Source: Promethearchaeota archaeon
GTDB lineage: Archaea > Asgardarchaeota > Lokiarchaeia > Sigyniarchaeales > SOKP01
Direction of reading: 5' to 3'
Assembly: GCA_019058245.1 (NCBI GenBank)
Contig: JAHPZJ010000028.1
Coordinates: 234,623 to 266,678 of the forward strand
DNA length: 32,056 nt
Part shown: positions 970-31,478 of the stretch, one piece after another
How the letters are laid out: the number at the start of each line of letters is the position of its first letter
How positions within the stretch are numbered: the first letter of the stretch is position 1
Translations under genes and position numbers: made by a program
Notes under the pieces: model-generated
Told to the model about the DNA's origin: nothing
The model's input: the letters and a program-made list of their open reading frames with translations, nothing else
The model's database searches: none

Positions 970-2295
970 ATGAGCAAAATGATAGATGCTGGAGTAAGTA
1001 TAACTACAGAAAAAGATAGCTATTCAGCAGGTAAAAAAGTTGCTAAAGAAGCTTTAGAGAATATGAGTGTAAAACCAAAATTAGCGATATTGGTTATAGA
1101 CGCCCTTTCACGTACGCGTCATAATTATGCGGAAGTTTTAAAAAGCGTAAGGGAAGAACTTGGAGAAGATGTAACATTAATTGGAAGTACTGTTAATGGA
1201 GTTACTGTAAACAGTCGATATGCTTTAAAAAGTGTTGCTATAATGTTACTCGGAGGGGATATATCCCTCGATTCGACCTTTAATTATCCTAAATCTAGAT
1301 TAAACTACGAGAGTATTGCTGAAGATGTTTATCAAAATATTCGTAATGCAGAACCAAATGATCAGCGTTTTATGTTATTATTTCAAGATGGAATTAAATT
1401 CCCACCTGAAGTTGTAGCTAAACAAAAAGCTTTAAATGGTCGAGCGGCAGTTTTATTTGCTGGGTTAATAGCAAGGATATTTAAAAAACAGTTTGAAGAA
1501 TTTAAAGAAAAAGGTCTGGGTTATTCTTCCACCCAAGAATTTCTCGAGGCTTTATATGCCAAAGGATGGGATAAAACAGTTATAGGAAATCTTGCCACCA
1601 ACACACGTAATTGGGATTCGGTAGAATTTTTTAATGATGAAATAGGTGCTGATAATATTATCGGAGCCATATTATCTCCACTGGGCTCTTCAAAGTTTGG
1701 ATTTGGATATGGTGCAGGAGCAGAACCTACAGGAAAAAGATGCAAACCTACTAAAAATATTGGAAATTTCATCTTAAAAATTGATGGAAAACACGCTCTA
1801 CAAGGCTTCTGTGAAGCTGCTGGGATACAGAAAGAGGCACTAAGGGAAATAAAACCCTACGATTATATAAACAGTCATACAATTTTAGGCACTAAAGAAA
1901 AGGTTGGGGACAAAGATATTATACATCTTGTTGCTACAATTACCAACCCAGAGCTTGAAAACTTTCTTATGACGGGATTTCTTTTTGATAGAGTTCCCGA
2001 AGAATTCGAAATATTTCGAAGTAATATGGAAGTAATGCATAAAACTGCTGAACTGACTGTGAAGCAAGCTCTAGAAAACATAGATAATCCTAGATTTTTT
2101 CTCGGATTTGATTGCGCACTTAGGTCTTTTTCATATGGGGATAATCTTCCAAGGATTATAGACACAATTGATAACGCAATAGGCAAGGATATCCCTCGAA
2201 TGATTATTGGATCTGGCGGTGAAATCTTCGGAACTAAGGATATAGATTATTATTGGAATAATTTAACTTTTCTTTCCTTAGTGGGCGGGGATTAA
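970..2295 (+). CDS. FIST (N + C) sensory-domain protein
   Basis: DSYSAGKKVAKEAL, LIGST..G, GFGYGAG.EP.G, ILKIDGKHAL, FDCALR and GGEI fit FIST_N/FIST_C motifs; the start is more likely ATG 970 or 979 than 925. Confidence 0.75.
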   Translation: MSKMIDAGVSITTEKDSYSAGKKVAKEALENMSVKPKLAILVIDALSRTRHNYAEVLKSVREELGEDVTLIGSTVNGVTVNSRYALKSVAIMLLGGDISLDSTFNYPKSRLNYESIAEDVYQNIRNAEPNDQRFMLLFQDGIKFPPEVVAKQKALNGRAAVLFAGLIARIFKKQFEEFKEKGLGYSSTQEFLEALYAKGWDKTVIGNLATNTRNWDSVEFFNDEIGADNIIGAILSPLGSSKFGFGYGAGAEPTGKRCKPTKNIGNFILKIDGKHALQGFCEAAGIQKEALREIKPYDYINSHTILGTKEKVGDKDIIHLVATITNPELENFLMTGFLFDRVPEEFEIFRSNMEVMHKTAELTVKQALENIDNPRFFLGFDCALRSFSYGDNLPRIIDTIDNAIGKDIPRMIIGSGGEIFGTKDIDYYWNNLTFLSLVGGD

Positions 2296-2304
2296 ATTTA
2301 GTTG

Positions 2305-2321
2305 AAAAAAAAAAAAAAAAA
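2305..2321. repeat. A17 homopolymer between the FIST and luxE-like genes
   Basis: 17 consecutive A at 2305-2321. Confidence 0.85.
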
Positions 2322-2392
2322 TCTTACACTTATGAACGGATGTTTTACATAAACAATAAATTAATAAATAGAATAAATATAAGATATTTAAT

Positions 2393-3577
2393 ATGTTAAT
2401 TGACGATTTCATAGATAAAGGGAAAACATATTTATATAAAGAGGATCAAAAAGAAGTGCAAAAAGAGCATTTCAAAGCGGTAATAGAAACTACAATACAT
2501 CAAATTGAAAAATGTGGTCTCTATCGTCAGCTTTGTAAACAAAAAAATTTTGACCCTCGTAGAGACTTAAAATCAGTAGACGATATAAAGAACATACCGT
2601 ACCTAACTTCAGCAAACTTTAAAGGAAAAACGGGAACACCTAAGAAATTTTTATGCGTACCTGAGAGTGACATTCAAGTCTGGCAGTCTTCAAGTGGGAC
2701 ATCTGGAGACCCATCTTTAATTGGTAAAGATCCAATTAATCTTAAAAGATATGTAAAAGTACTTAATTTTGGTTTTGCGGAGGTTTTGAATTTAGACCAT
2801 TTTGACTGGACCTTATATTTCACCCCTCGACCTCAAAAATTTTATACTATAGAAGATAAAATACCTGACCCTATTCCTAGCATGCTTTATGTGTTGATTC
2901 TTACAAACCAAACCCCTATGGAAAATAGATTTTATGCTCTAAAAAGAGCCGATGAAGAAGCAAGAAAAAAAGGAAAAATCTTTGACATTGATAGCGAAGG
3001 AACACTTAATTTCTTAAACTCAAATCCTTCAGAGAAAGGTAAAGGATGGGTAGGTGGTGCTATTCCTCTATTGTATTCATATTTCTCGGAAATGCATAAA
3101 AAAACGGGCCAAACTTTTGAATGTGGTGAAGATTCAGTTGTAGTAGTTGGTGGAGGATGGAAGTCTTTTGCTGGCGAACAGGTCTCACCAGAAAAATTCC
3201 GAGAAGTTATATCTAGATCATTAGGAATACCGCAGAAGAATATCCGAGATTCTTATAATTTCTCTGAAACTGATTGTATGAATCCAGAATGTGAATATCA
3301 TAACAAACATGTCCTACCATGGGAAGATATTATTATTAGGGATGTTGAAACCTTAGAGCCAGTAGAAATGGGGGAAACTGGATTAGTAAATGTAATAAAT
3401 CCCATAGCTTATAGTTATGCGGGTGTGTCAATACTTCAAGACGATATTGCTAAAATTACAATGGAAGATAATTGTCCATGTGGTAGAAGAGGCAAAGTTA
3501 TTGAAATCATTGGCAGAGCTCAAGGTGCTGAAGGAAAGGGATGCGGAGCCCAATTAACTGGAGAAACTGATACTTAA
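2393..3577 (+). CDS. luxE: LuxE-family acyl-protein synthetase (long-chain fatty acid activating, ANL/PaaK-like)
   Basis: SSSGTSG ATP loop, VVVGGGWK, IRDSYNFSE, YAGVSILQDD, CPCGRRG and a C-terminal GRAQGAEGKGC carrying the LuxE acyl-acceptor Cys. Confidence 0.85.
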   Translation: MLIDDFIDKGKTYLYKEDQKEVQKEHFKAVIETTIHQIEKCGLYRQLCKQKNFDPRRDLKSVDDIKNIPYLTSANFKGKTGTPKKFLCVPESDIQVWQSSSGTSGDPSLIGKDPINLKRYVKVLNFGFAEVLNLDHFDWTLYFTPRPQKFYTIEDKIPDPIPSMLYVLILTNQTPMENRFYALKRADEEARKKGKIFDIDSEGTLNFLNSNPSEKGKGWVGGAIPLLYSYFSEMHKKTGQTFECGEDSVVVVGGGWKSFAGEQVSPEKFREVISRSLGIPQKNIRDSYNFSETDCMNPECEYHNKHVLPWEDIIIRDVETLEPVEMGETGLVNVINPIAYSYAGVSILQDDIAKITMEDNCPCGRRGKVIEIIGRAQGAEGKGCGAQLTGETDT

Positions 3578-7820: not shown

Positions 7821-9314
7821 TTAATAATACGGAAATCTCTTATTTTCTTCCACTTTTGATTTAACGTGTTTTTTGCACGTACTTTTCTTAGAACCCGCAA
7901 TTCTTTGTAGAAGTGGTAAGCCAGGTTTCACATCTGCTATTGGTTTGGATTCAATTAACTTATTATTAATTAGTTCATTATAAAGCTCTTTACCTTTTTC
8001 AGTTCTAATAAGTACGGTATTCCATCCTGATGGAGACCCTATAGATCCAATTGAAATGTCTGCGGATTCAGAAGTTAAATCATAACATATTTCACAATCT
8101 TCACGAGCTAAATGAGAGATTTCTTTAATAGGCACACTTAATTCTTCTCCTTTATTAGTATAAACAAAGAATTTACCTTTATTGATATCCATTTTTTTAG
8201 CATTATCAATGTCAACATCCAATTTTTCACAAATTTTTAAAAGTGATTCATAAGAAAATGATTCCATGCAAAAAATTCCAATTCTATATTCGATATTATC
8301 TAAGGATGGAAATCCAATATTGTAAATCTTAGATTTGAGAAGTGCTTGCATTTGACATGGTACTCCTACTACAGCAATTTTTTTGCCTTTAAGCTCGCTT
8401 TGGTTAAGAATTTGTAAATTTGGATTATTTACATATTTAGTTCCAGCAGTAGAAACTATACCTTCTTTATTTTTGAGTAAAATTGGTTCTGGACGCCATA
8501 AAGTATTGCTCATTTTCGCGCCTAATGCAAAATCTATTTTATCATTATCAAAAAGATAATATAAGCAAGTACTTGAAATACCTCCATCTTGGCATACATC
8601 TGAAATGTCTTTGATTTTAGTTCTTGCTGAGTAAGCTTCAAGGAAATGTCCCACTTTCGAATATTCTTTGATTTCTGTAGTGTTTTCTTGAGTCATATTT
8701 AATAATCTTTCTGGGAGATATGTCCTAGGGCACACAAAATAGCATAATCCACAACGTATGCATTTATCTTCATCAATTTTTCCGAAACCATTATAAATAT
8801 GAAGACAATTTACCGGACAGATTCCAGCACATAAACCACAACCTGAGCAGACTTTAGAATCAAAAATTACCTTTACAGGTTCATATATTGGTTTTAATTT
8901 TGATATTTCTATATCATTAGGTATAATTAAAAAGTCTTGAAATATGAGTTTTTCTGGAGTATTCTCATCTCCTTCAATTTTTTCATTGATTTCTTCTACA
9001 ATTACAAGCTTTTCATTTTTGAGCAATTCTAAAAAGCTTAAAGTCTTATTTAAATCAATAGCATTATCTTCAGAATATTTGATAAGAGTATTTAGATTAC
9101 TTTCTGAATTTTTTTTTAAAGAATTATATAGGGAATATTTGGATTTTTCTTCATCTAACATAGTAAGAAGAATAGACTCATATTGAGTTTCATCATAAAC
9201 CCCCGCATCTAAAATATCTTTTTTTGCATCAATTAATGCTCGAATTCGATATGAATCTAACGCATCTGCAATATTCTTAAGAAATTCCCATGAGTAATTT
9301 TCTTCAAGGCTCAT
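7821..9314 (-). CDS. F420-binding FrhB/FdhB/FpoF-family subunit fused to a 2x[4Fe-4S] ferredoxin and an N-terminal helical domain
   Basis: CSGCGLCAGICP and CIRCGLCYFVCP; QDGG..S, AGTKY, AVVGVPCQ, IGIFCMESF, CEICYD.TSE.ADISIGSIGSPSGWNTVLIRTEKG. Confidence 0.9.
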   Translation of the reverse strand: MSLEENYSWEFLKNIADALDSYRIRALIDAKKDILDAGVYDETQYESILLTMLDEEKSKYSLYNSLKKNSESNLNTLIKYSEDNAIDLNKTLSFLELLKNEKLVIVEEINEKIEGDENTPEKLIFQDFLIIPNDIEISKLKPIYEPVKVIFDSKVCSGCGLCAGICPVNCLHIYNGFGKIDEDKCIRCGLCYFVCPRTYLPERLLNMTQENTTEIKEYSKVGHFLEAYSARTKIKDISDVCQDGGISSTCLYYLFDNDKIDFALGAKMSNTLWRPEPILLKNKEGIVSTAGTKYVNNPNLQILNQSELKGKKIAVVGVPCQMQALLKSKIYNIGFPSLDNIEYRIGIFCMESFSYESLLKICEKLDVDIDNAKKMDINKGKFFVYTNKGEELSVPIKEISHLAREDCEICYDLTSESADISIGSIGSPSGWNTVLIRTEKGKELYNELINNKLIESKPIADVKPGLPLLQRIAGSKKSTCKKHVKSKVEENKRFPYY

Positions 9315-9348
9315 ATTTATACATATTATTTAATTAAATTCAATTTAT

Positions 9349-9419
9349 TCCGAAAACCCTTGCAAAGGGTTAGTTCCTTTTCAACCAGAATTTTTTTGAA
9401 AAGATCATTCTATTTCGGA
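9349..9419 (-). ncRNA. Candidate SECIS element (eukaryote-like AUGA core, stem and A-rich apical loop) inside a three-way junction overlapping the vhuD stop codon
   Basis: Minus-strand RNA UCCGAAA-UAG-AAUGA-UCUUUUCAA-AAAAAUUCUGG-UUGAAAAGG-AA-CUA-ACCCUU-UGC-AAGGGU-UUUCGGA has nested complementary arms; it lies directly 3' of two TGA-containing genes. Confidence 0.7.
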
Positions 9420-9838
9420 TTTTTTTTTGGTATAGGAGGGAGGACGTGAATTTTTTTGGATATATCTTCAACAGAATTTATGAATTTTTCAACATCTGCG
9501 GCAGAACAAAAATATTGTTGAATTCGTTCTTCAGAAATACCTTCATGCTTTAATAATTTCTTCAAAGTAAGAATATGTTGATAAGTATTTATATTACCAT
9601 TACCAAATTCACATTCTCCTTCTTTTCAAGAAATTATTGCGACACCATCTGCGCCATTTAATAAAGCCTCCATTAATAAATGAATTCCAATTCTACCGGT
9701 GCATCTTACTCTGATGAGATGAAAATCTGTAGAATATGATTTTCTTGTAGTACCTGTTAAATCTGCTGCAGAATATCCTCATTTATCGCAACCAAAGGCA
9801 ATTATTTTTCTAGTACCATTATCCTTTATTTTATTCAT
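9410..9838 (-). CDS. vhuD: Selenoprotein VhuD/MvhD ([2Fe-2S] hydrogenase delta subunit), 142 aa, Sec20 and Sec71; absent from the ORF track
   Basis: Hand translation MNKIKDNGTRKIIAFGCDK-U-GYSAADLTG...IRVRCTGRIG...NGADGVAIIS-U-KEGECEFGNGN...ERIQQYFCSAADVEKF...PKKNPK*; TGA at 9779-9781 and 9626-9628, the two positions that are Sec in methanococcal VhuD (CxxU; GUKKGEC); GAGGT upstream of ATG 9838. Confidence 0.93.
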
Positions 9839-9859
9839 TATTCATAACCTCTATAGTGT

Positions 9860-11857
9860 TTATTCTTCAATACTCTCAGTAACTTTTTCCGCATTCTCTA
9901 ACTCACTACTGCTAATACCCTTGATTTCTTGAGAAAATTGCTTATCACGATAATATTTCAAGTCAATCGCTCTTGCTGGACAAGATGATACACATACACC
10001 ACACCCTTTGCATTTTAAATCATCAACTTGTGCAATTTCGTTCTCATTAACTTTTATCGCTTGATAAAAGCATAATTTCTCACATCTATGACATCCCATA
10101 CAAAGATCCTCATCTACTTCGGCAATGATTAATTCTTGTTTTATTGTATCATGAGATAAAATAGTAGATACTTTACTTGCAGCTGCTAAAGCGGAAGATA
10201 CTGAATATGGAATATTTTTTGGTCCAGCAGCACACCCAGCAATGTAAATCCCCATATCTTTTGTTTCTTGTGGGCTTAAACAACCATGAATTTCTGAAAG
10301 GAAACCTGAAGGTCCTTTACTTAGTCCCATTACCTCGACGATTTCTTCTGTTCCCTTAGAAGGAATCATTCCTGTTGATAATACCACTAAATCAGCATTA
10401 ATATTTACAATTTCACCAGTTAAGGATGAATATGCTCTTACTTTTAGTTTATTTGTTTCCTTATCTTCTATTATTTCACCTACTTTACCCCTAATCATTC
10501 TTATACCTGATTCTCTAATTTTTCTATAGTATTCCTCATTTCCTTTGTCCGTAGTTCGAATATCAATATAAAACATAATTACATCCATATCGGGATATTC
10601 TTGCCTGAGTAGCTGAGCGTTCTTAAGAGAAACATTGCAACAAACGAAAGAACAATATGGATTAGCATTAACATCTCTAGAACCTACACATTGAATTATT
10701 ACTACAGTTTTTGGAATTTCTCCATTGGAAACACGATATACATGCCCTCCTGTAGGTCCAATAGGACTTAACATTCGCTCTAATTCTATTTGGGTTATTA
10801 CATCAGGATAATATCCATAGTTATATTCATTAGATTCCCAAATTGGATATTCGTCCCACCCAGTAGCGATAATTACCGCACCGACTTTTATATCAATATA
10901 TTCTGCTTCTTGTTCAAAATCAATTGCCTCAGCTGGACATGTTCGTTCACAAGTTTTGCAATCAATACATACATTTCTATCCATAACGGCTAATTTTGGA
11001 ACTGCTTGAGGAAAGGGAATATATATAGCACCTCTTTCACCAATACCTCTGTCAAACTCACTAGGTACTTTTATTGGGCATTTCGTTGTACATAAACCAC
11101 ATCCAGTACACTTGCTTTCATCAACATATCGAGGATTTTTCCTTATTTTAACATGATAATCACCAGGAATACCACTAAATTCAACAATATCACTATACGT
11201 AAATAAGTTGATGTTAGGATGTTTTGATGCATTTACCATTATAGGTGCTAAAACTCATATGCCACAATCATCTGTTGGATAAATTCGATCTAATTGTGCC
11301 ATTTTTCCACCAATTGTCGCTTCTTTTTCCACTAGATAGACCGGTATTCCTTGATTAGCTAAATCTAAAGCAGCATTCATTCCTGCAATTCCTGCACCCA
11401 CAACTAAGACTGCCCTTTCTACTGGAATTTCTTTTCTGGGTATTATTTCTAACTCTCGAGCACGATTAATTCCTGCTTTAACTAGTCTTATAGCTTTCTC
11501 TGTAGCTTTTTGTTTATCATCCCTATGGACAAAAGAGCAATGTTCTCTTAAATTGACCATCTGAAAATAATATGGACTTAAACCTGCTTCAACTAAAACT
11601 GCTCTATAGGTCGGTTCATGAATTTTTGGTGTACAAGCTGCTACAACTACTCTATTTAAATCTTGTTCCAGAATATCATTTCGGATTATATTTTGTCCTG
11701 GATCGGAACACGTAAAGGAATTCACTTTGGCAATTACTACATTTGGAAGATGCTCAATTGCATCTTTAACTGCATCACAATCAACAGAAGCTTTAATATT
11801 GACTCCTCACTCGCATACATAGACTCCTATTCTAACTGTGGTCTGACTTTCAGACAA
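9860..11857 (-). CDS. hdrA: Selenoprotein heterodisulfide reductase subunit A, 665 aa, Sec17 and Sec201; the ORF track splits it into fragments
   Basis: AGGTGA then TTG 11857; MSESQTTVRIGVYVCE-U-GVNI (TGA 11807-11809, the CHCG position) ... VVGAGIAG ... RIYPTDDCGI-U-VLAPIM (TGA 11255-11257) continues in frame into 9860..11239 with ferredoxin motifs and QCVGSRD..YCSFVCC. Confidence 0.93.
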
Positions 11858-12127
11858 TTATGTCACCTTTTTGTAAATCTTCACCATTACTTTTTAGTTA
11901 ATACAAAATATACCATTAATTCTTATTGCGTAAAGAAATTATGGAAATAATTTATTTTTTCTCATTAGTTTTAATAATATTGATTCTGATAATAGAATTA
12001 TCTAAAAATTAGAAATTTGTATATAGCAGATTTAAAGAAGATGATTTTAGTTGATAATTTTTAAACTTTTTTATCGATTTAAGATCTTCTCGTGAATTTT
12101 TTATTGAAAAAATAATTATTTAGTAAT

Positions 12128-12313
12128 ATGACAGAGGCAGAAGAAAAAAAGAAAGAAGATTTTGCTAAGGAATTTATGGCAGAAGAAGGATTAAAAGGGA
12201 AAGCAAGAAGAATAAAAATTATCAAAATTATTGATATGGTAGGATATGATAAAAGGAAGATTAAGACCGCCTTAGCTCGTTCCACTATAGTTGATAGAAT
12301 TCAGCATGAATGA
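12128..12313 (+). CDS. Small charged hypothetical protein (61 aa), divergent from hdrA
   Basis: ATG-started ORF with protein-like composition, flanked by AT-rich intergenic DNA. Confidence 0.65.
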   Translation: MTEAEEKKKEDFAKEFMAEEGLKGKARRIKIIKIIDMVGYDKRKIKTALARSTIVDRIQHE

Positions 12314-12423
12314 TATTAATTTTTTTGAAAAATTTTTAAATCAATTTCGTATTTTGATAAAATTAAGATTTTGTTAATTTAATAAAGAATTATTATATCC
12401 AATGTAACTGAAGACGCAAAATT

Positions 12424-26627: not shown

Positions 26628-27494
26628 ATGCAAAATAGCGAGAATTCACAATTCAAAATCGAATATATTTCGACTTCTGGGGTGTATAAAACACCATTTA
26701 CTCTAATTATCCTACTACAATTTTTTATAGGATGCTTGGTGGTTATTTCAATTAATTTATGGTTTTACAATGATCTATTTTTCCTTCTCACAGGAAAGAG
26801 ATTTCTATCATTTCTATTAATTGGTCAATGGTGGGAATGGTTACTGCTTCCATTGAATATTTATGGGAATCTTTTATTATTTGCGTTTTCGGTTATTTTA
26901 TTTTCAGCATTTCTTTTTAAAGTTCTAAATAAAATATATCCTCCAAGGGAAGGCGTATTTGAAAAGGGTAGTAAAGAATGGAAATACACTCATCGAAGAT
27001 TTTGGATGGCATATTTTCCAATTTGGTTAGCAAGATCATTACCACTCCCCTGGTCCGATATTTTCGTTTATCGTTTTTTAGGAGTACATATAGGTAAAAA
27101 TGTTGTTGCTTATGAAGGATATATTGATCCTGAATTTGTAGAGATTGAGGATTACACGATGACTTCACTTAATATTTGCATTTTTTCTCATCTAATCTAT
27201 CATGACAAAATTTTAATTAAAAGGGTAAAAATAGGGAAGACTTGTATTGTTGGACCTCAAACTATTATTAGTCCTGGGACTATACTCCAAGATGGAGCTA
27301 TTTTAGGAGTTAATAGTTATACATGGGTAAATCAAATACTCGATGGAGATTTTATCCATGTTGGAACCCCAGTGAATAAAAAACTTCAAATTCAATCAGT
27401 AGAAGAATCCATAAAAAAAGCAGAGAGAATTAAGGAAGAATCTCAAAAAAAAATAAATAATACAGATAAAAAAATTATTGGAGCTAATAGATAA
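26628..27494 (+). CDS. Membrane protein with a hexapeptide-repeat (left-handed beta-helix) acyltransferase-like domain
   Basis: Two hydrophobic segments, YPPREGVF, GVHIGKNV, VKIGKTCIVGPQTIISPGTILQDGAILG. Confidence 0.8.
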   Translation: MQNSENSQFKIEYISTSGVYKTPFTLIILLQFFIGCLVVISINLWFYNDLFFLLTGKRFLSFLLIGQWWEWLLLPLNIYGNLLLFAFSVILFSAFLFKVLNKIYPPREGVFEKGSKEWKYTHRRFWMAYFPIWLARSLPLPWSDIFVYRFLGVHIGKNVVAYEGYIDPEFVEIEDYTMTSLNICIFSHLIYHDKILIKRVKIGKTCIVGPQTIISPGTILQDGAILGVNSYTWVNQILDGDFIHVGTPVNKKLQIQSVEESIKKAERIKEESQKKINNTDKKIIGANR

Positions 27495-31373: not shown

Positions 31374-31478
31374 CGCAGATGGAGGGAATCGAACCCCCGA
31401 GCGCTTACGCGCACCGGCTTTCTTGATCATTATTTATAATGCTCGAGGCCGGCGTCTTACCAGCTAGGCTACATCTGC
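31374..31478 (-). tRNA. tRNA-Ser(CGA) with a 22-nt intron at position 37/38 (31420-31441)
   Basis: Acceptor stem GCAGATG/CATCTGC + G73; anticodon stem CCGGC/GCCGG; CT-CGA-G; long variable arm GCGC-GTAA-GCGC; GGTTCGATTCC T-arm; bulge-helix-bulge geometry; CCA not encoded. Confidence 0.92.

Follow-up and report, generated by a model that had tools for sequence, protein, structure and literature searches.

SECIS elements of Lokiarchaeota have been described as a class of their own, the lokiSECIS, which is defined by a 9-bp stem that is preceded by AUGA and closed by an 11-nt loop (Mariotti et al. 2016, PMC4989117). The first five bases of this loop are mostly A and the last one is G, and the stem is followed by GA, or by AA in VhuU (PMC4989117). 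In the same work, every Loki hdrA-vhuD pair was found to carry a single lokiSECIS behind vhuD, with none nearby, RNAz and Infernal searches recovered no other element near these pairs, and the authors concluded that hdrA and vhuD share the lokiSECIS on a polycistronic mRNA, with up to six UGAs and over ~2 kb. The overlap between stop codon and SECIS was already remarked there as a form of compaction (PMC4989117). A later survey covering hundreds of Asgard genomes reported hdrA and frhD sharing one element and an AUGA_AA core in a number of Lokiarchaeia hdrA/frhD genes (Huang, Xiao & Zhang 2024, PMC11227280). Only one functional test of a Loki element has been published, carried out in Methanococcus maripaludis, and its outcome was negative (PMC11881835); it has also been remarked in print that standard SECIS tools miss Loki elements.

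The element under study spans 71 nt at positions 9349-9419 of the minus strand, at the 3' end of vhuD, in a window of 32,056 nt, which is the whole stretch of DNA analyzed here. It is very probably a lokiSECIS, that is, an Asgard type I eukaryote-like SECIS, located at the 3' end of a bicistronic mRNA shared by hdrA and vhuD. All of the published lokiSECIS features were found in it, namely AUGA, the 9-bp stem, the 11-nt AAAAA...G loop, AA, and the position at the end of a gene. The element overlaps the vhuD stop codon, behind a gene with in-frame UGAs at Cys positions, and the canonical archaeal signature, an asymmetric GAA_A internal loop flanked by two G+C-rich stems, is absent from 9349-9419, where the main stem forms an uninterrupted 9-bp helix. 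The first-pass annotation had placed one eukaryote-like SECIS here, possibly for four UGAs in two cistrons, noting that Lokiarchaeota SECIS elements are known to resemble eukaryotic ones. The placement is supported but published, since the shared SECIS appears in PMC4989117 and the AUGA_AA core in PMC11227280, so that the main inference of the annotation is not new. The element adds a further well-conserved case of one SECIS for two cistrons.

Translation with TGA read as U located hdrA (665 aa) at 9860..11857 on the minus strand, with a TTG start preceded by a GGUGA ribosome-binding site, FAD/NAD and 4Fe-4S domains detected by Pfam, and in-frame UGAs at codons 17 (11809-11807) and 201 (11257-11255). 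The hdrA leader, at 11858-11900(-), harbors two GGUGA motifs 16 nt apart (GGUGAagauuuacaaaaaGGUGA), both kept in orthologues, the second of them being the Shine-Dalgarno; the start codon, TTG here, is ATG in some orthologues. The same translation located vhuD/mvhD (142 aa) at 9410..9838 on the minus strand, with a GAGGU Shine-Dalgarno, the stop codon UAG at 9412-9410, and in-frame UGAs at codons 20 (9781-9779) and 71 (9628-9626), and its product is a FlpD protein (Pfam: PF02662; E 2.4e-36). Upstream of the AUGA, these UGAs are found at distances of 2399 and 1847 nt in hdrA and of 371 and 218 nt in vhuD. When compared by tblastn with the paralogues of the same genome, the hdrA UGA positions corresponded to Cys in 14 matches and to TGA in three, including the gene itself, and those of vhuD to Cys in 10 matches and to TGA in three, again including self. 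The presence of Cys opposite all four UGAs in the paralogues indicates that the four UGAs are Sec codons in intact genes; as judged from their sequences, hdrA and vhuD are intact selenoprotein genes here and not broken ones. This vhuD has its relatives in MAGs that bear the label Promethearchaeota or Promethearchaeia, that is, in Loki-type Asgard archaea.

Read along the minus strand, the element begins with UCCGAAA (9419-9413), the 5' arm of an outer helix, which encodes the last vhuD residues NPK and pairs with 9349-9355. The following UAG (9412-9410), the vhuD stop codon, constitutes the 5' strand of a 3-bp helix below the kink (C stem) and pairs with 9371-9373. A single A (9409) and the AUGA (9408-9405), a defining lokiSECIS feature, make up the 5' side of the SECIS core, in which a three-base bulge, AAU, precedes the G and the A of the non-Watson-Crick pairs (together 9409-9405). 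The 9-bp main stem has UCUUUUCAA (9404-9396) as its 5' arm and UUGAAAAGG (9384-9376) as its 3' arm, enclosing the 11-nt apical loop AAAAAUUCUGG (9395-9385), with AAAAA at the start and G at the end. The 3' side of the core is AA (9375-9374), which replaces the usual GA, and is followed by CUA (9373-9371), the 3' strand of the C stem pairing with UAG; by the side hairpin ACCCUU-UGC-AAGGGU (9370-9356), which is the third arm of the junction; and by UUUCGGA (9355-9349), the 3' arm of the outer helix, pairing with UCCGAAA. Every part of the layout proposed in the first-pass annotation was located at these coordinates on the minus strand, and RNAfold returned the three-way junction as the minimum-energy fold (-17.8 kcal/mol). 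The signal of the single-sequence fold is weak, being only modestly better than that of shuffles (z = -1.9), and the above-chance evidence for the element comes from conservation. In this family, the three helices of the junction meet without unpaired linker bases.

The AUGA was invariant in all of the orthologue and paralogue alignments. Across 21 same-genus orthologues the whole element was almost identical (mean column identity of 86%), the core AA was invariant, and, with little variation, 92.8% of the cells were paired and three pairs had changed on both sides. Among 37 orthologues, the 3' dinucleotide of the core was AA in 33 and GA in four, the paralogues having GA at this place, while the 3' strand of the C stem read CUA in 25 and CUG in nine. 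The fifth pair of the side hairpin was found as U-A, G-C, and A-U among orthologues. The two-Sec vhuD paralogue families exhibited the same layout with different helix sequences, the paralogue outer helices being ACCCCU/AGGGGU, AUGUGUU/AACACAU, ACCGAA/UUCGGU, UCGAUGG/CCAUCGA, and AAUCGAU/AUCGAUU. These comparative data also fit the kink-turn-variant core, with G.A and then A.A, that had been proposed from the single sequence.

In an alignment of 55 distinct elements fitted to the covariance model R1, a procedure that inflates pairing, 88.7% of the cells were paired against 70.7% in shuffled data; the main stem was 93.5% paired with nine of nine pairs covarying, the C stem UAG/CUA was paired in 85.7% of the cells, and the outer helix had double-sided changes in seven of seven pairs. 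The first pair of the main stem was non-standard in 17 of the 55 elements, which is expected beside a kink-turn core. Double-sided changes were observed in 21 of the 23 pairs overall, and the covariation score of 0.523 compares with 0.208 for shuffled alignments and with values of at most 0.176 when the partners were slid. The joint MAFFT alignment of all paralogue families misaligned the AUGUGUU/AACACAU family, which was therefore inspected by eye only and does not enter these covariation counts. RNAalifold, applied to an unguided MAFFT alignment, predicted the main stem, the side hairpin, and the core of the outer helix, with compensatory changes in 12 of the 14 predicted pairs. The covariation across vhuD 3' regions that the first-pass annotation had suggested looking for is present, as the junction covaries across the vhuD paralogues.

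Searches with covariance models led to the same region. The Rfam SECIS families, including RF00031, gave no match at the gathering score in the whole window and none in 9200-12400 even at E <= 10, in agreement with the published remark that standard tools overlook Loki elements, but a model from which the orthologues of this vhuD had been excluded (R2) detected the element clearly. R2 comprises 23 elements, some belonging to vhuD paralogues in related genomes and the others to selenoprotein genes of the genome under study (VhuU, PrxL, and the small membrane ones), and when run on the window with filters off it matched 9343-9423(-) with 75.8 bits (E about 5e-19), covering 79 of 79 positions with every modelled pair standard. 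R2 matches were also obtained in all 15 sampled genomes of the same family (two to nine in each) and in three of five genomes of one other Asgard family.

The junction recurs within this genome: it is found behind VhuU, whose stop codon is the UGA contained in AUGA, behind a UxxU PrxL gene, and behind three small membrane selenoprotein genes, and the side hairpin is present in all vhuD paralogue families as well as behind other selenoprotein genes. The occurrence of the junction behind other selenoprotein genes makes it a property of this SECIS class and not a speciality of hdrA-vhuD. The three-way junction put forward in the first-pass annotation is supported by covariation across the vhuD paralogues and by recurrence behind other genes, and in these alignments compensatory changes preserve it from gene to gene and from genus to genus. 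Its three-armed base goes beyond the published descriptions and seemingly has not been described in print, as neither junction nor side hairpin appears in the main texts of PMC4989117 and PMC11227280 (a supplementary figure in PMC4989117 may depict them), and a full-text literature search combining SECIS, three-way junction, and archaea returned nothing relevant.

Some of the genes bearing these elements have features of their own. The UxxU PrxL at C30:36748-36827(-) ends in ...NPK-stop, with NPK encoded by the outer-helix 5' arm AUCCCAAA, and vhuD likewise ends in ...NPK-stop, with NPK encoded by AAUCCGAAA (window 9410-9419). This common end suggests that SECIS modules may pass from one gene to another along with the final codons, or that the C-terminus may be constrained by the helix. 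The three small membrane proteins (C27:41913-41991(+), C27:42381-42458(+), and C13:146105-146183(-)) each have one in-frame UGA, in the contexts VVSUGE, LMAUGT, and GGUGC, and each is then followed by a three-way-junction SECIS; the copy at C13:146105-146183(-) keeps UAG in the 3-bp helix though the stop codon is an upstream UAA. In C10:57900-61400 (391-882 and 2207-2668, minus strand), we also observed two paralogous proteins of ~155 aa with adjacent Sec-Sec in the motifs HADUUAD and GCUUEK, each followed by a 9/11 lokiSECIS and with no Pfam match.

A first alternative concerns the base of the element, since the outer helix and the side hairpin might not belong to the SECIS and might instead form a structure of the mRNA 3' end, either a terminator or a protection against exonucleases, which merely abuts it. 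Every selenoprotein gene examined has these helices at its 3' end, which would be in keeping with such a structure, as would the U-run that directly follows the outer helix in one paralogue family and the published SECIS models, which do without both helices. We regard this as unlikely, given that the outer helix, having its 5' arm upstream of the AUGA, encloses the SECIS, and that the three helices of this vhuD family leave no linker bases between them. The U-run, moreover, is conserved neither among orthologues nor in the AUGUGUU/AACACAU family, the side hairpin has a central loop G that varies neither in two alignments nor across genes, and every match of R1 or R2 at E <= 0.001 within this genome adjoins a UGA-containing gene. 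An intrinsic terminator composed of the side hairpin and a U-run was considered separately and rejected, both because the U-run is not conserved among orthologues (GGGUAUUCGG, GGGUCUUCGG, and others) and because the 3' arm of the outer helix, which covaries, is located farther downstream.

Downstream of the element, a spacer of 34 nt (9315..9348, minus strand), rich in A/T and containing a TATA-like block, leads to an frhB-like gene of 497 aa (7821..9314, minus strand; Pfam: PF04422 and PF04432), which encodes an N-terminal extension, two 4Fe-4S motifs, and the FrhB N and C domains. The first ~140 residues of its product (8895-9314) have no Pfam domain and precede the 4Fe-4S motifs and FrhB domains. 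The first-pass annotation had proposed that sequestering of the stop codon couples Sec decoding to this gene, with terminating ribosomes remodelling the UAG-bearing fold in an hdrA-vhuD-frhB transcript and thereby linking Sec decoding to frhB-like translation. The three genes do share one strand, with synteny kept in orthologues, the UAG stop does lie inside the 3-bp helix here, and, judging from the general ribosome footprint, a ribosome terminating at this codon would have to melt the outer helix and the core. The comparative evidence nevertheless points away from coupling: only 20 of 37 distinct orthologous elements have the UAG of the C stem as the stop actually used, 14 others stop at a TAA located 10-18 nt upstream, and two stop at UGA. 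The triplet itself is kept in 28 of the 37, including some where it is not the stop, and this excess indicates that it is conserved as structure more than as stop. One paralogue family has its stop in the 5' arm of the main stem and another one upstream of the whole fold, and the same junction stands behind VhuU, PrxL, and small membrane selenoprotein genes that are monocistronic.

The start of the frhB-like gene also argues against coupling, as its ATG has no Shine-Dalgarno, unlike hdrA and vhuD, each of which has one. In 20 of 21 orthologues the fold is separated from this ATG by 28-34 nt, a constraint on spacer length, and a TATA-like A/T block with the consensus ATTTAAAAA is found in the orthologues at about -25 to -16 from it, that is, ~20 nt before the ATG. 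As far as sequence can tell in a genome of 29% G+C, the spacer is probably the promoter of the frhB-like gene itself, which would give a leaderless or nearly leaderless mRNA. With UAG serving as the real stop in little more than half of the orthologous elements and with these signs of an own promoter, the proposed coupling did not hold up, and we deem it quite unlikely.

The window was also searched for a second SECIS, in or 5' of hdrA in particular. With filters off, R1 and R2 revealed no second element in the window above 17 bits (none above 16 in the case of R2); the match of both SECIS models at window 26684-26747(-), with 16-17 bits, is devoid of AUGA and most likely reflects chance. A relaxed pattern scan of 9839-12300 yielded one GUGA...GA hairpin at 11884(-), around the Shine-Dalgarno and start of hdrA (0.11 expected by shuffling), which was rejected as an hdrA SECIS because its arms are unpaired in four of seven orthologues. 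The searches with R1, R2, Rfam, and the pattern scan thus gave no second SECIS for hdrA, and the gap between hdrA and vhuD, which the first-pass annotation had considered too short for one, was confirmed to be 21 nt (from TAA 9862-9860 to ATG 9838). That hdrA has its own recoding signal, of the canonical archaeal GAA_A kind or as a structure in the coding region, and that the vhuD element serves vhuD only, is highly improbable, for although canonical archaeal and type II elements would escape R1 and R2 and the hairpin at 11884 does lie near the hdrA ribosome-binding site, the pairing of this hairpin is not kept in orthologues, no Rfam SECIS family matches 9200-12400 at E <= 10, the published RNAz/Infernal searches found nothing else near Loki pairs (PMC4989117), and a gap of 21 nt cannot hold an element.

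Components of the Sec machinery were detected elsewhere in the genome, which encodes SepSecS (472.7 bits, over the cut-off) and, on contig 14, an EFSec-like GTPase whose score of 235.7 bits falls slightly short of the bacterial selB cut-off. The assembly, which is 76% complete, yielded no tRNA-Sec: the best RF01852 score reached 40.9 bits against a cut-off of 47 (Rfam) and the only SeC call by ARAGORN requires a 2.9-kb intron. Within the window, a 105-nt Rfam tRNA match at 31374-31478(-), with 43.4 bits and no ARAGORN call, is probably an intron-containing archaeal tRNA.

Taking the element as a lokiSECIS shared by hdrA and vhuD, the AUGA...AA core would form a kink-turn-like motif, with G.A and A.A below the 9-bp stem and a loop that starts with five adenines, which may be recognized by a SECIS-binding factor and/or by the archaeal Sec elongation factor. 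This factor would then deliver Sec-tRNASec to ribosomes paused at the UGAs, two in hdrA and two in vhuD, located 0.2 to 2.4 kb upstream. Below the core, the 3-bp helix, the side hairpin, and the 7-bp outer helix would join as a three-way junction without linker bases, which is a conserved part of the SECIS class and probably fixes the geometry of the kink. What we infer from sequence in this scheme is that Sec is actually inserted, that hdrA and vhuD are transcribed together, which factor binds the element, and what the junction does.

Search models for Asgard SECIS elements, as well as binding and recoding assays aimed at the archaeal SECIS-binding factor, should be built on all 71 nt of the junction instead of the 35-nt hairpin. 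A bolder possibility, which we put forward tentatively and hold to be less probable than its negation, is that the working unit of the Asgard SECIS is the entire three-way junction and not the published stem-loop with a small lower stem. If so, the side hairpin and its invariant loop G could provide a second contact for the SECIS-binding factor or for the ribosome, this second contact could let one element serve several UGAs over 2.4 kb and two cistrons, and helix I and the internal loop of the eukaryotic SECIS could descend from the junction.

Several known systems can be set beside this element. As in kink-turns with A.A at 2b.2n, there is a three-base bulge followed by G.A and then A.A, and as in k-junctions the kink-turn is set in a three-way junction, a likeness that is a lead only, resting here on secondary structure; in the k-junctions the third helix branches at the kink, whereas here it branches after the 3-bp C stem (A.A kink-turns and k-junctions: Schroeder et al. 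2012; Wang et al. 2014, both as cited in PMC11227280). The vhuD SECIS elements of Methanococcales and Methanopyrus share the gene context but keep the GAA_A internal loop, which the present element does without. The eukaryotic type I SECIS (RF00031) has in common with it the AUGA, the unpaired adenines of the apical loop, the 3' position, and the distant UGAs, and is distinguished by the shorter upper stem, the A.A in place of A.G, and the branched base found here, no SBP2 being known in archaea (PMC4989117, PMC11881835).

The lokiSECIS of Mariotti et al. (PMC4989117) agrees in its AUGA, 9-bp stem, 11-nt AAAAA...G loop, and single copy at the end of vhuD, as well as in the very short hdrA-vhuD gap and in the possible overlap with coding sequence or stop codon. 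It differs in the core, which is AA here, whereas the paper gives GA for hdrA-vhuD and AA only for VhuU, and its main text is without an outer helix or a side hairpin. Finally, the Asgard type I eSECIS-like elements (PMC11227280) have the same AUGA_AA core, and the 3-bp UAG/CUA helix is the counterpart of their short lower stem; these elements were drawn as two stems with an internal loop, whereas the element behind this vhuD is a three-way junction with a conserved side hairpin.
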